Source: Archaeoglobaceae archaeon
GTDB taxonomy: Archaea > Halobacteriota > Archaeoglobi > Archaeoglobales > Archaeoglobaceae
Length of the DNA stretch: 29,954 nucleotides
Direction: 5' to 3'
NCBI GenBank assembly: GCA_038893835.1
Contig: JAWAQR010000015.1
Coordinates: 1 to 29,954 of the forward strand
Shown here: positions 26,245 to 29,939 of the stretch, piece after piece
Layout: every line of letters starts with the position of its first letter
Numbering within the stretch: the first letter of the stretch is position 1
The notes under the pieces: model-generated
The model's input: only the letters and a program-made list of their open reading frames with translations
What the model was told of the DNA's origin: nothing
The model's database searches: none
Translations under genes and position numbers: made by a program

Positions 26245-27951
26245 ATGCTAGGGGTTGAAGGAAAAACACTCATGGAAGTAAGACCTGAAGAGATCAAAAG
26301 GATCTGGGTAAAACACTATGATAAGGGAGTTAGAGATCACATAGATTACCCCGAGATACCGCTATACTGCCTGCTTGAGGAAAGCGCAAAGAAGAACCCA
26401 AATAAAACTGCCCTGATTTTCTATGGTAAGAAGCTCAGTTACAGAGAAGTTGATGAATTGAGCGATAGAGTTGCGGGTTATCTGTACAGCATTGGAATTA
26501 GAAAGGGAAGCAAAGTTGTTTTAGATCTACCAAACACTCCACATTACGTAATAGCATACTATGGAATCCTGAAAACTGGGGCAACAGTAGTTCAGTGCAA
26601 TCCTCTTTACACTGAGAGGGAGATAAGGTATATAGTTGAAAATAGTGAAGCTGAGGCAGGCTTCTTCATAGAAATGGTTTATCCGAGGATTGAGAAAATC
26701 TTGAACGAAGGAAAGCTTAAGAGGGCGATAATATGCAAGATTGAGGACTTTCTCCCCTTCCCGCTTAACTTATTATATCCACTTAAAAAGCAGAAGGTGA
26801 AAATCGAGAAAAGAGGGGATGTGACATTCTGGAATGAAGTTGTAAAACATCCGCCATCTAAAGATAGACCAAAGATAGATCCAAAAGAAGACGTTGCAGT
26901 TTTCCTATACACAGGTGGAACCACTGGGGTTCCCAAGGCAGTTATGAGCACACATTACAATCTGGTGGCCAACACGTATCAAGTTCTTGAATGGCTTCCA
27001 GATAAAAATCCTGAGAGCGATGTTTTCATAGCTGTACTTCCATATTTCCATAGCTATGGAATGACAACTTCGCTAAACGTTCCAATAGCTTTTGGTGCAA
27101 CGATAGTTCTAATCCCAGATCCGAGGGATATAAAGACGATTTTAAAGTCTATAGAAAAGTACAAAGTCTCGATTTTCTGTGGAGTTCCAACGATGTACAC
27201 AGCAGTCTTGAACTATCCTGAAAGAAACAAGTACGACTTATCATCCATAAAGGCCTGCATAAGCGGTGCAGCACCTTTGCCAGTTGAGCTAAAAAGAAAC
27301 TTTGAAAGTGCAACTGGAGGAAAGCTTGTTGAAGGCTATGGATTGAGCGAGACTTCTCCAGTTACGCATGCAAATCCACTTTACGGATTGAACAAGGAAG
27401 GGAGCATAGGAATTCCGCTGCCGGATACGCTTGCTGTAGTTGTGGATGACGAGGGTAACATTCTCCCACCGGGACAGGTTGGGGAGCTTGCAATCTATGG
27501 ACCGCAGGTGATGAAGGGATACTGGAAGATGGAGAGCGAGACAGCGAAGGTATTGATAAATGGATGGCTTTTGACTGGAGACCTTGCAAAGATGGATGAG
27601 GATGGATACTTCTACATAGTTGACAGGAAGAAGGATTTGATAATCGCTGGTGGCTACAACATATATCCAAGGGAAGTTGAGGAAGTCCTCTACGAACATC
27701 CCGCCGTGCTCGAGGCAGCAGTTATAGGAGTTCCGGATCCATACAGGGGAGAAACTGTGAAGGCCTTCATAGTTCTGAAGCCAGAGTACAGGGGAAAGGT
27801 TACAGAGGAGGAAATAATAAAGTTCTGTAAGGAGAGACTCGCAGCTTATAAGGTTCCAAAGATAATAGAGTTCCGGAATGAGCTTCCTAAGTCTGCGGTT
27901 GGAAAGATACTGAGAAGAGTTTTGAAAGAGGAGGAGGCGAAGAAGAAATAA
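26245..27951 (+). CDS. fadD: Long-chain-fatty-acid--CoA ligase (FadD-like)
   Basis: YTGGTTGVPK, EGYGLSE, TGD, RKKDLII.GG.N.YP.EVE, LPKSAVGKILR. Confidence 0.93.
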   Translation: MLGVEGKTLMEVRPEEIKRIWVKHYDKGVRDHIDYPEIPLYCLLEESAKKNPNKTALIFYGKKLSYREVDELSDRVAGYLYSIGIRKGSKVVLDLPNTPHYVIAYYGILKTGATVVQCNPLYTEREIRYIVENSEAEAGFFIEMVYPRIEKILNEGKLKRAIICKIEDFLPFPLNLLYPLKKQKVKIEKRGDVTFWNEVVKHPPSKDRPKIDPKEDVAVFLYTGGTTGVPKAVMSTHYNLVANTYQVLEWLPDKNPESDVFIAVLPYFHSYGMTTSLNVPIAFGATIVLIPDPRDIKTILKSIEKYKVSIFCGVPTMYTAVLNYPERNKYDLSSIKACISGAAPLPVELKRNFESATGGKLVEGYGLSETSPVTHANPLYGLNKEGSIGIPLPDTLAVVVDDEGNILPPGQVGELAIYGPQVMKGYWKMESETAKVLINGWLLTGDLAKMDEDGYFYIVDRKKDLIIAGGYNIYPREVEEVLYEHPAVLEAAVIGVPDPYRGETVKAFIVLKPEYRGKVTEEEIIKFCKERLAAYKVPKIIEFRNELPKSAVGKILRRVLKEEEAKKK

Positions 27952-27965
27952 TTTTTTATTTTTAT
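27952..27965 (+). terminator. Oligo-T terminator after fadD
   Basis: TTTTTTATTTTTAT directly after the stop codon. Confidence 0.5.
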
Positions 27966-28216
27966 GGGGGAGTGGTGGTAATAAGCCCCCTTCTGTTCCG
28001 GCGGCATCGGTCTTAGCGGCCTTAAGCCTTGCACCCAGTGGTGGGCGGATTTTTCAACCAGCAGAGGTGATCTCGGCTTTTCAGCTTCATCGCATTTCCC
28101 CCTGCCGGGGTTTTTCTGTTCCGCCCAATCCCCTCTCGGGGATGCTCCTTGCGGAGCCCACTTTTTGGGTGGGGGGACTTTCCTCCTCTCGGTCAGCCGC
28201 CCACCACCGCTCCCCC
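27966..28216 (-). ncRNA. rnpB: RNase P RNA (archaeal, type-M-like)
   Basis: GC-rich island. Minus strand has GAGGAAAGTCCCCC and AACAGAAGGGGGCTTA (P4 halves), ACAGAAA, TGAAA, GGTGCAAG, and complementary ends GGGGGAGCGGTGGTGG/TTACCACCACTCCCCC (P1). Confidence 0.96.
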
Positions 28217-28280
28217 TTGGAAGTTATCTTCAATGCATAAAATCTTTAAGGCGTACCTTATACAAGGATTAGGTGGGTTT

Positions 28281-28688
28281 ATGATATTCCAGGGGAGAAG
28301 TAGAAGAAAGCCTACAGGGGGTCTTTATAGGCCGCATAGAAAGAAAAGGAAATACGAGTTGGGTGGAGAGCAGGTAATGACAACAATTGGAGAAAGGAAA
28401 GTGAAGAAAGATAGAATGATGGGAGGAAACTACAAATTGAGACTTTTTGCTGACAAATTTGCAAATGTTTACGATCCTGAATCTAAGAAGGTTGTTAGGG
28501 CGGAGATAAAGGCTGTCCTCGAAAATCCTGCAAACGTTCACTATGTTAGACATGGGGTGATAACAAAGGGGGCAATCATAGCTACTTCAATCGGGAAAGC
28601 TAAGGTTACGAACAGACCTAGCCAGGAAGGGATAATAAATGCAATTCTAATTGAGAAGCAAATCGAGGGGGCGCCAAAAGTGTCATAG
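28281..28688 (+). CDS. rps8e: 30S ribosomal protein S8e
   Basis: MIFQGRSRRKPTGG...RKKRKYELG, ENPAN, ITKG, VTNRPSQEG. True start is ATG 28281 after AGGTGG. Confidence 0.97.
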   Translation: MIFQGRSRRKPTGGLYRPHRKKRKYELGGEQVMTTIGERKVKKDRMMGGNYKLRLFADKFANVYDPESKKVVRAEIKAVLENPANVHYVRHGVITKGAIIATSIGKAKVTNRPSQEGIINAILIEKQIEGAPKVS

Positions 28689-28736
28689 ATGCATCGGCGG
28701 CGGGACAGAGACCAACATTATCTATGGCGCCCCTTT
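28666..28736 (-). ncRNA. Candidate small structured RNA (~70-nt hairpin), family unknown
   Basis: GGGGCGCCA/TGGCGCCCC 9-bp inverted repeat enclosing a further stem; upstream BRE/TATA at the right spacing. Confidence 0.55.
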
Positions 28737-28755
28737 AAAAGTTAGCACAGAGATG

Positions 28756-28770
28756 TTAATAAAATTTTCG
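28756..28770 (-). promoter_or_regulatory. BRE/TATA promoter pointing at the hairpin
   Basis: Minus strand CGAAAAT-TTTATTAA; box begins about 30 nt upstream of GGGGCGCC (28733). Confidence 0.6.
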
Positions 28771-28782
28771 TGATATAGATTG

Positions 28783-29370
28783 TCAAGCTCGACTTCTGTC
28801 GAGTTCATAGTGGATGATGGTTATACACTGCTCTGCCATCAAAGAAAGCTTAGACACACTCAAAATTTTCTCGGCAAACTCGAGGATGACATCTTCCTCC
28901 TCTTTTTTAACACCAAGATGGTCTCCAAGAATAAAAAGGGGATTTTTTATCGATGCAATCTCTTCTCTTATATCCTTTCCGTCCTCTCTCAAGTAATAAA
29001 TCTTAAACTTTTCAGAAAGTTCTTCAAGCAGTTCCTTTATGTTCTTCTTCGCTATAAAAATTCCGGAATTTGTTTCTGTCCAATTCTTGGAAACTTTAAA
29101 GCCGATAGCTTTTCTTATATGTCCAGCAATGTTTCTCTCATCTGGAGACATTCTTTTTAACTCGTTACTCGAAATTTTTAAAACCTTTGGCGGATCAGGT
29201 TTTCCTAGAAGAAGCAAATAAACTTCCACATCCTTTCTTATTGAATGTGAAAGGAAAAGAGCTTGAGAGACACACCTGCATAGTATATCCATTCTTCCAG
29301 CGCCGGGAATGTCGTTTAGGTTAAATGGCTCGGTTACGGCTTCATTTCCAATCACTAAAAAACCCCTCAT
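28783..29370 (-). CDS. trmY: tRNA (pseudouridine54-N1)-methyltransferase
   Basis: FNLNDIPGAGRMDILCRC, SHSIRKD, PDERN, LGDHLG (SPOUT fold), IHYELD. Confidence 0.93.
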   Translation of the reverse strand: MRGFLVIGNEAVTEPFNLNDIPGAGRMDILCRCVSQALFLSHSIRKDVEVYLLLLGKPDPPKVLKISSNELKRMSPDERNIAGHIRKAIGFKVSKNWTETNSGIFIAKKNIKELLEELSEKFKIYYLREDGKDIREEIASIKNPLFILGDHLGVKKEEEDVILEFAEKILSVSKLSLMAEQCITIIHYELDRSRA

Positions 29371-29939
29371 ACGAATTCACCTTTCAGAAGCTTGATCGCA
29401 AAATCTCTATTTTTCGCGAGATCGATCGAGTAATTGTCCCAGAAAACACAGGTTCCAAGGACAAGAACGTTGTCTTTAACTGCACCAAAAATTCCCTTAC
29501 CTATTACAAAGCTTTTCCCCCCACTCACAGATGCCGAGCATGGCATAACAACTTCCAGTTCTCCACATCTTGCAATCGGGAACATGGGATCACCAGCATT
29601 TTTTTCTTCATCCGTTATTAGATCATAGTTTATTTTTAATCCAAAATGTCTTGCAACTCTATTCACGTTCTCCGAAACTTTATCCACGTTGGAGTAATAG
29701 CCAGTAAGGATTATCTTTTTACCCTTTTTGGTCCACTTCTTTATCTTCGCTATATCACTTGCGCTGAACTTTATCTCTGGATAGTTGAAGACTATAAGAT
29801 CATATTCGCCCAGTTTCCCAAATATCTTCTCCTCCTCCATCTGCAAGCCAAACTTCTCAGCAATTCTTGTCAGCTTGGAAAAATAGTAATAATCTCCAAT
29901 GCTGAACTCACCCCTACTCGCACTCCAGACTATGCGCAT
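29367..29939 (-). CDS. Hypothetical protein, possibly class I glutamine-amidotransferase-like fold
   Basis: S.GEF...YFSKL, YDLIVFNYPE..FS, FWDNYSI..A.N pattern; overlaps the trmY start by 4 nt. Confidence 0.7.
   Translation of the reverse strand: MRIVWSASRGEFSIGDYYYFSKLTRIAEKFGLQMEEEKIFGKLGEYDLIVFNYPEIKFSASDIAKIKKWTKKGKKIILTGYYSNVDKVSENVNRVARHFGLKINYDLITDEEKNAGDPMFPIARCGELEVVMPCSASVSGGKSFVIGKGIFGAVKDNVLVLGTCVFWDNYSIDLAKNRDFAIKLLKGEFV

Follow-up and report, generated by a model that had tools for sequence, protein, structure and literature searches.

What is encoded by the G+C-rich island that abuts the 3′ end of the ribosomal protein gene rps8e in an A+T-rich archaeal genome? The island lies at 28665-28734 of a 29,954-nt stretch of DNA from an Archaeoglobaceae archaeon (contig JAWAQR010000015.1 of assembly GCA_038893835.1), the whole of which we refer to as the window; the genome to which it belongs has a length of 1.17 Mb and a G+C content of 40%. 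A preliminary description of the window, made from its sequence alone, had proposed that the island is an unannotated structured RNA of about 70 nt on the minus strand, with a promoter of its own, antisense to the end of rps8e and possibly a guide or regulatory RNA of an RNA-processing neighborhood. The unannotated minus-strand RNA, its promoter and the absence of an Rfam family to which it could be assigned all stood in the analysis reported here; the H/ACA-like character, the role given to the neighborhood and the middle stem of the proposed fold did not. We conclude that the element is a new family-specific small non-coding RNA (ncRNA) and a good candidate for a new RNA family, and we are highly confident that it is an independent RNA gene of the minus strand. 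Its best explanation as a whole, toward which we lean without great assurance, is a single-copy, independently transcribed, small structured ncRNA of ~66-70 nt that works by the mechanism proposed in the last section. The comparative signature of this RNA is unusually clear for an archaeal small ncRNA and comes with two unexplained features, the letters at the junction of a head-to-tail transcript and a U tract inside the molecule.

Fold, distribution and covariation of the element

Re-reading the minus strand at 28666-28736 gave the same sequence as the preliminary description, and RNAfold reproduced the overall architecture drawn there, so that its core observation, a structured element at 28665-28734, was confirmed. 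In the window copy the closing stem (GGGGCGCCA/UGGCGCCCC) has nine pairs, as had been described, although they are not all G-C, eight being G-C and one A-U. Beyond the closing stem are a 9-nt bulge on the 3′ side, a middle stem of five pairs (UAGAU/AUCUA) and a stem of six pairs (UGUUGG/CCGAUG), three of them G·U, which carries a 14-nt C-rich loop. The predicted energy is −26.6 kcal/mol for the RNA strand (z = −2.69; 4 of 200 shuffles were as stable) and −25.5 kcal/mol for the plus strand (z = −1.98; 7 of 200). Taken alone, the modeled fold of this copy is only modestly better than chance; the element rises above chance because it is conserved with covariation, not because of its fold energy.

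How widely, then, is the element conserved? Relatives found via the S8e protein were from Archaeoglobaceae, Archaeoglobales or Archaeoglobi, 12 of the loci being at 80-90% identity, and the element was present downstream of rps8e in 19 of 29 relatives' loci and not present in the other 10. We built two covariance models, R1 from 16 sequences and R2 from 47; the covariance-model match to the window spans 28668-28733 of the minus strand (71.4 bits, E = 6.5e-12). Model R1 detected a single copy in each of 75 family genomes out of 92, which represent 16 of the 18 genera, and nothing in 132 genomes drawn from 25 other families in the phylum. With model R2 the RNA was found in 81 of 91 other Archaeoglobaceae genomes as well as in the window's own, raising the count to 17 of 18 genera, while a sister family (f2) was matched marginally (E = 0.03) in one of two genomes and a third family in neither of two; the genomes without a match are to be read as ones in which the RNA was "not found" rather than "absent", because some of them are incomplete and the large searches used stricter filters. 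The sister-family locus has a promoter-like block at the right distance, a core that reads UCCCGUCG and a U6 tract, and its closing helix covaries, with one G-C pair replaced by U-A; judged from these letters, the copy is probably genuine. As far as these genomes tell, the small RNA is confined to Archaeoglobaceae, apart from the probable copy in the sister family.

The preliminary description had also allowed for a dispersed repeat, of which many copies would be expected. They were not seen. The element is single-copy in the window's own genome, and nearly all of the 83 genomes matched by R2 have one match each, two being found in G044 and G023. One copy per genome rules out a dispersed repeat or a miniature mobile element.

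Which parts of the fold are shared among the relatives? RNAalifold, applied to the model-based alignment of 47 sequences, predicted only the closing helix, P1, family-wide. Pair 5/80 of P1 is U-A in 24 of these sequences and C-G in 23, with no exception (C-G 23 and U-A 23 over the 46 distinct sequences), and P1 is paired in 98.6% of cells of the distinct sequences. In the inner helix, P2, pair 20/52 occurs as GC (20), AU (10) and GU (7), and pair 24/50 as GC (23) and UA (14). Over the whole structure 90.9% of cells are paired, compared with 41-50% when the partner columns are shifted by 1-3, and the observed covariation score was reached by none of 500 shuffles, values that come from an alignment fitted to the covariance model, which favors the structure, and from relatives that are not mutually independent. 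The middle stem (AUAGAU/AUCUAU), which is part of the fold in the preliminary description, proved specific to this genome and is not conserved in relatives. A different pairing, that of the 5′ arm with the loop core, was given by RNAalifold on a first MAFFT alignment and was rejected, the G runs in that alignment being out of register.

The most conserved letters of the element are those of the loop core, a U followed by CCCGCCG, each column of which is kept in 44-47 of the 47 sequences and whose UCCC part is predicted to be unpaired (pairing probability at most 0.16). The preliminary description had pointed to this C-rich loop as a possible antisense element, and it is the loop that conservation singles out as well. 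Counting from the first base, the core begins after 25-34 nt in 52 of 53 distinct homologs, the apical CCCGCCG lying ~28-31 nt from the 5′ end, and it continues as UCACCGC in most genera and as CCGAUGC in the subclade of the window. Immediately before the 3′ arm of P1 there is a U tract, of at least U4 in 48 and at least U5 in 35 of the 53 distinct homologs. The 5′ linker adjoining P1 is short and variable.

Promoter, strand and the relationship to rps8e

Is the element transcribed in its own right, or does it belong to rps8e? In the window, G28733, the first G of the stem, comes 22 nt after the end of the TATA part of the promoter string. The 50 nt upstream of 54 loci, taken on the strand of the model, have a consensus that is C-rich at −39 to −36, A-rich at −35 to −32 and T-rich at −31 to −24, which is the layout of an archaeal transcription factor B recognition element (BRE) and TATA box. 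A TATA-like pattern starting between −36 and −26 is present on the RNA strand in 36 of 54 loci and on the other strand in 3 of 52. At the level of sequence, a BRE/TATA-like block at −39 to −24 is conserved together with the RNA, as in an independent archaeal RNA gene, and the promoter first proposed from the window alone is found at a fixed distance in 54 homologous loci. We regard this block as the putative promoter of the small RNA; because of its position, transcription would be expected to start at the base of P1, at its first G or one base before it.

The wobble pairs favor the minus strand as well. The preliminary description had drawn this from three pairs of the inner stem of the window copy that are G-U on the minus strand and C-A mismatches on the plus strand, and the asymmetry extends to P1 across the homologs, which on the RNA strand has 37 G·U against 5 A·C.

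The arrangement of the locus in relatives separates the element from rps8e. Among 32 loci, 17 have rps8e convergent with the small RNA gene and abutting it, one is a short contig with trmY only, and 14 are without rps8e in the sense that none lies within ~1.5 kb (one of the 14, L093, ends at a contig edge). The element keeps its promoter block, P1, core and U tract as one set, also in the loci without rps8e, where the neighbors are unrelated. The antisense overlap with rps8e is incidental, because 14 of the 32 loci have no adjoining rps8e, and we conclude that the overlap with the end of this gene is a by-product of tight packing. The preliminary description had treated both the RNA-processing neighborhood (trmY, rnpB) and the antisense position to rps8e as defining, a view that we abandon, as there are other neighbors in 14 of the 32 loci.

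Could the element nevertheless be a cis element of rps8e, either a terminator or stabilizer on the plus strand or a cis-antisense regulator on the minus strand? In 17 of 32 loci, which come from several genera, it adjoins the rps8e stop or overlaps with it, its complement often folds at least as well, and one assembled metatranscriptome contig (record 7 of run X1, introduced below; 28631-28694) extends from rps8e into the element. We consider such a role improbable, because the promoter, P1, the core and the U tract are kept in the 14 loci without rps8e, because pairs of P1 that are G·U on the minus strand become C·A mismatches on the plus strand (37 against 5), because a simple terminator scan finds nothing at the site and because a cis-antisense role needs no invariant loop. 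An intrinsic-terminator-like hairpin, or a hairpin of the rps8e 3′ untranslated region (UTR), was rejected on two of these grounds, the empty terminator scan and the 14 of 32 loci without the gene.

In the window the rps8e stop, at 28688, falls within the 3′ arm of the small RNA, and the gene is 8 residues longer than in most relatives (IEGAPKVS after ...LIEKQ; 28665-28688 of the plus strand). In relatives the rps8e stop codon lies at or before the element, and, since it comes before the element in several of them, the overlap in the window is best seen as a local accident. The element would also correct the annotation, in which rps8e extends at its 3′ end into an RNA gene. On the plus strand, the promoter block at 28756-28770 contributes a T4 run 32 nt past the hairpin, which may end the rps8e transcript; if it does, the 3′ UTR of rps8e would be fully complementary to the small RNA.

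Known RNA classes and a head-to-tail transcript

Does the element belong to an RNA class that has already been described? Rfam 15 gave no match for it at the gathering score or at E up to 10, there being only two noise matches beside it; RNase P RNA was the only gathering-score match in the window, and seven divergent homologs had no Rfam match at E up to 1. No known family matches the element, in keeping with the novelty first claimed for it. That it is not a tRNA, as the preliminary description had stated, agrees with ARAGORN, which found none in the window, with the lack of an Rfam tRNA match at E up to 10 and with the lack of a cloverleaf. The same description had seen no clear C/D boxes in the window copy, and this holds for the family, RUGAUGA and CUGA each being found in 0 of 53 homologs; a C/D-box RNA was rejected accordingly. 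Its H/ACA-like reading fared differently. ACA follows P1 within 6 nt in 0 of 54 cases, it occurs in the 3′ linker of only 10 of 53 homologs, and there is no Rfam H/ACA match; the short, variable 5′ linker beside P1 also speaks against a two-sided pseudouridylation pocket. GA motifs of the K-turn type were looked for by eye, the counted motifs being boxes only, and none were seen.

A modification guide RNA of the H/ACA or C/D type, or another described RNA class, would fit the size of the element and its nature as a G+C-rich island in a genome of 40% G+C, and one alternative fold of the window copy, noticed in the preliminary description, does put ACA after a stem. Set against this are boxes found in 0 of 53 homologs, ACA after P1 in 0 of 54, no Rfam match and a complementarity to 23S rRNA (see below) that is not conserved, and we rate a guide RNA as very improbable.

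Additionally, is there a transcript that corresponds to the predicted gene? Four metatranscriptome runs (X1-X4) were compared with 27950-28950 of the window, X1 in the form of assembled contigs. Record 8 of X1 is a contig of 102 nt with a depth of 3.6 that matches 28665-28733 with 0 differences and in which 28733 is joined back to 28665 through three extra letters, CTG on the plus strand. Its length is 72 + 30, the value expected of a cyclic assembly unit for an assembler word length of 31, which we assume. Record 8 reads as a 72-nt head-to-tail RNA of exactly the hairpin, most simply a circular one. The discrete molecule that had been predicted is represented by this one contig with its ends at the base of the stem, contigs being strandless.

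Circular forms of stable archaeal RNAs, C/D-box RNAs as well as RNase P RNA among them, have been reported (Danan et al., cited in PMC7667871). The small RNA resembles these, as they are summarized in that source, in that its ends are joined by a terminal helix and RNA data contain a head-to-tail junction (one contig, depth 3.6); it is unlike them in that it has no C/D boxes, is no known ribozyme or guide and has three non-genomic letters at its junction. A bulge-helix-bulge intron or a circle formed from a processing stem was rejected, the junction having three letters that are not in the window, although no dedicated motif search was made; a processing stem would also find no 5′ flank to pair with, because the putative promoter would put the start at the base of the stem.

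RNase P RNA has a head-to-tail joint of its own in run X1, from 28215 to 27967, at a depth of 307.8, the linear parts reaching thousands; its two ends are separated by four letters, TGGA on the plus strand (UCCA on the strand of RNase P RNA). The reads of run X4 have starts at 27966 and ends at 28207 and 28216. We take this to be, by its appearance, circular RNase P RNA from a relative of this organism, and it adds little to the interpretation of the small-RNA junction, as the flanks of the relative vary and may encode the letters.

A question raised by record 8 is "What are the three letters at the junction?" On the RNA strand the junction reads ...CCCCC-U-C + CAG + GGGG, which can be parsed as U-CCA and one extra G, or as a short untemplated tail. 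Several RNAs other than tRNAs are tRNA-like and have a CCA tail, including mascRNA, viral tRNA-like ends and the acceptor arm of tmRNA. The small RNA is likewise tRNA-sized and has a G+C-rich terminal helix and a short 3′ overhang, with CCA at the junction as a possibility only, whereas it has no cloverleaf, T arm or D arm. Might it be a tRNA-sized mimic of the tRNA acceptor end that is tailed by the CCA-adding enzyme and serves as a decoy, regulator or cofactor for the enzymes of tRNA maturation? Such a role would suit the parsing of the junction as U-CCA with an extra G and the tRNA-related neighbors, which are trmY and RNase P RNA in the window, tpt1/kptA (RNA 2′-phosphotransferase) within ~1 kb of the small RNA gene in four loci (L090, L097, L098 and L101) and a gene for the CCA-adding enzyme directly beside it in L105 (L105:1592-2953), these five loci being from genera in which rps8e does not adjoin the RNA gene. 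The loop core would suit it also, as several tRNAs encoded by this genome have an identical 3′ T-stem/acceptor string (AUCCCGCCG recurs in the T-arm/acceptor part of 5 tRNA genes). However, of the three letters at the junction no more than two have to be untemplated, and they come from one contig; the extra G requires a second assumption; and the RNase P junction derives from a relative whose flanks may encode TGGA. Neither a cloverleaf nor a T arm is present, ARAGORN and the Rfam tRNA search are negative, and the neighbors vary by genus, perhaps through inherited gene order only. We find a mimic of this kind unlikely. More doubtful again is its extended form, in which a CCA-tailed, circularized non-tRNA is a family-wide tRNA-end mimic that engages RNase P, the CCA-adding enzyme and Tpt1/KptA, the loop being a second surface. 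If the CCA and the circular form are true, the RNA would be a new substrate class for archaeal enzymes that modify or ligate RNA ends.

Finally, could the locus be a feature of the DNA, without function as RNA? A palindromic sequence, a miniature mobile element or a site of recombination might explain an inverted repeat of 8-9 bp with covarying arms, a pattern that is strand-symmetric. Such a feature sits poorly with a single copy per genome, with the oriented promoter block attached to it, with wobble pairs that are strand-specific and with an RNA-library contig that has its ends at the base of the stem, and we give it the least credence of the alternatives weighed here.

Possible mode of action and genomic context

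How might an independently transcribed small RNA of this shape function? In the mechanism that we propose, P1 would clamp the ends of the RNA and thereby protect it at high temperature, would halt 3′ trimming at the base of the stem and would set both ends where an RNA ligase could join them. P2 would present the C-rich loop as the working surface, and the loop would pair with a G-rich stretch of another RNA or bind a protein. The U tract would be a candidate landing site for the Sm-like proteins of these archaea, a suggestion by analogy that is plausible because Archaeoglobus fulgidus has such proteins and they co-precipitate RNase P RNA (PMC3710371). That the small RNA acts by base-pairing of its loop is a tentative idea, which we hold to be less likely than not.

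What could the loop pair with? The exact complement of the core, GGTGACGGCGGGA, was found only in the gene itself in four of five complete genomes, and none was among the matches listed for G078; with one or two mismatches, the complement was as frequent as a reversed control in the five complete genomes. When the window's own genome was scanned for duplexes, thousands of scores were alike and none was an outlier, the best trans matches being a run of glycine codons and an uncharacterized stretch. An 11-mer of the plus strand of the element, CGGCGGGACAG, is also a stretch of the 23S rRNA of the same genome (G000:C2:16928, L060, position ~1429), at a site that we take to lie in helix H79. This stretch differs in three of five other genomes (G073, G078 and G041) that keep the core of the small RNA; 23S rRNA was rejected as a target or model, and the match, as a likeness of letters, is taken as a coincidence. 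Similarly, a pairing of 6-9 bp with the 5′ strand of RNase P RNA, drawn by eye, is G·U-rich and not significant.

Alternatively, the RNA may be a scaffold for protein, the loop and the U tract being binding sites of a family-specific ribonucleoprotein and no RNA pairing being involved. Invariant short motifs held at a fixed distance from the 5′ end of an otherwise variable scaffold are consistent with this, as is the lack of a conserved complementary target, and the U tract may be likened to the oligo-U preference of Sm-like proteins. No candidate partner gene accompanies the small RNA gene, however, and its neighbors vary; the only uncharacterized neighbor that recurs is a small protein that, judged by eye, seems to start with a signal peptide, and no K-turn-type GA motifs were seen, again by eye. 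We regard the protein scaffold as a minor possibility, though one worth bearing in mind beside the pairing of the loop with RNA.

Several observations weigh against the interpretation that we favor, that of an independent minus-strand RNA which acts through its loop. In only 19 of 52 homologs does the RNA strand have a lower minimum free energy than its complement, and the complement has the better-paired inner helix in several genera. A run of U5-U7 is expected to be an archaeal termination signal, yet the 3′ arm of P1 lies beyond it, and T4 or longer is present within 25 nt downstream in only 19 of 54 loci. Expression is represented by one low-depth contig from one run, contigs being uninformative as to strand; no reads at the locus came from runs X2 and X3, and the reads of run X4 fall only on a relative's RNase P RNA. 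In addition, no conserved target emerged from the core complement, the 11-mer of 23S rRNA or the duplex scan of the organism's own genome.

How does this RNA compare with others? In Sm-site RNAs and Y RNAs, a terminal helix is formed from both ends, and a single-stranded U-rich tract lies beside the helix. The small RNA shares with these an end helix and an adjoining U tract, and 16 of 53 homologs fit A-U4-7-G; it differs from them in that its U tract is inside the clamp and not in a tail, and its Sm site is putative. A bulged helix of the Ro type was not seen, although no search aimed at one was made. We know of few archaeal small RNAs that are conserved beyond a genus or have a structure supported by covariation. 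Trans-encoded small RNAs have been cloned from A. fulgidus (Tang et al., 2002, cited in PMC3432209), and, as far as that citation describes them, the likeness is that of short, independently transcribed, non-coding, G+C-rich islands in an A+T-rich thermophile genome. The RNA studied here is distinguished by one copy across the whole family, covarying helices and an invariant loop, although it may itself be on the list of clones. We found no description of it in Rfam or in the literature, in a search that did not cover the clones of Tang et al. (2002), so that an earlier cloning is possible. A literature search for Archaeoglobus transcriptomes and transcription start sites yielded no paper on this family.

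The small RNA is directly testable, as it is single-copy, has a consensus-like promoter and is present in 17 of the 18 genera of a family to which cultured model thermophiles belong, and it would add a new RNA family to the catalogs. Complete genomes with a copy are G041, G055, G066, G073 and G078. Should the loop prove to pair with targets, the RNA would be a conserved riboregulator of a sort rare in archaea, perhaps with an Sm-type site.

The coordinates of the gene, of its parts and of the genes around it are collected in Table 1.

Table 1. Positions of the small RNA gene, its structural elements and neighboring genes (window coordinates, except in the last row, which refers to loci of relatives)
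Feature	Position	Strand	Basis or remark
Small non-coding RNA gene	28665..28734	minus	5′ end predicted at G28733 or A28734; 3′ end at about U28666/C28665
Putative BRE/TATA-like small-RNA promoter; minus-strand letters CGAAAA + TTTTATTAA	28756..28770	minus	Sequence reading
P1, 5′ arm, GGGGCGCC	28726..28733	minus	RNAfold and alignment
P1, 3′ arm, GGCGCCCC	28668..28675	minus	Opposite the last rps8e codons on the plus strand
P2, 5′ strand, UGUUGG	28712..28717	minus	RNAfold; compensatory changes in relatives
P2, 3′ strand, CCGAUG	28692..28697	minus	RNAfold and pair counts
Invariant loop core, UCCCGCCG (CGGCGGGA on the plus strand)	28698..28705	minus	Column conservation
U tract directly preceding the 3′ arm of P1; U4 in the window copy, reaching U7 in relatives	28676..28679	minus	
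rps8e, convergent with the small RNA gene; last 7 codons overlap it	28281..28688	plus	Open reading frame
trmY, TrmY-type RNA methyltransferase gene; upstream, same strand as the small RNA	28783..29370	minus	Pfam Methyltrn_RNA_2, E = 4.6e-68
RNase P RNA	27966..28216	minus	Rfam RNaseP_arch, 143.8 bits
Small-protein genes neighboring the small RNA gene in relatives	L090:1689-2120, L097:1679-2086, L098:1688-2104, L103:956-1372, L101:1123-1566		

The end of trmY and the BRE of the small RNA are 13 nt apart, and the orthologs of rps8e in L084 and L099 belong to the Pfam family Ribosomal_S8e. No partner gene is conserved with the small RNA gene; tpt1, the CCA-adding enzyme gene (cca), AMMECR1 (a neighbor in L094 and L105) and the small-protein gene recur in some genera only. 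The RNA-related neighbors differ between genera, and their presence may reflect only inherited gene order. The small proteins (~135-145 aa) form a family with no Pfam match and an apparent N-terminal signal peptide, judged by eye, and their genes adjoin the small RNA gene in five loci, mostly in divergent orientation. In the window, an open reading frame of 190 aa at 29367-29939 of the minus strand matches the IFT52 GIFT domain only below threshold (E = 7.8e-6; 25.6 bits, the cut-off being 27.2), and its stop overlaps the start of trmY.

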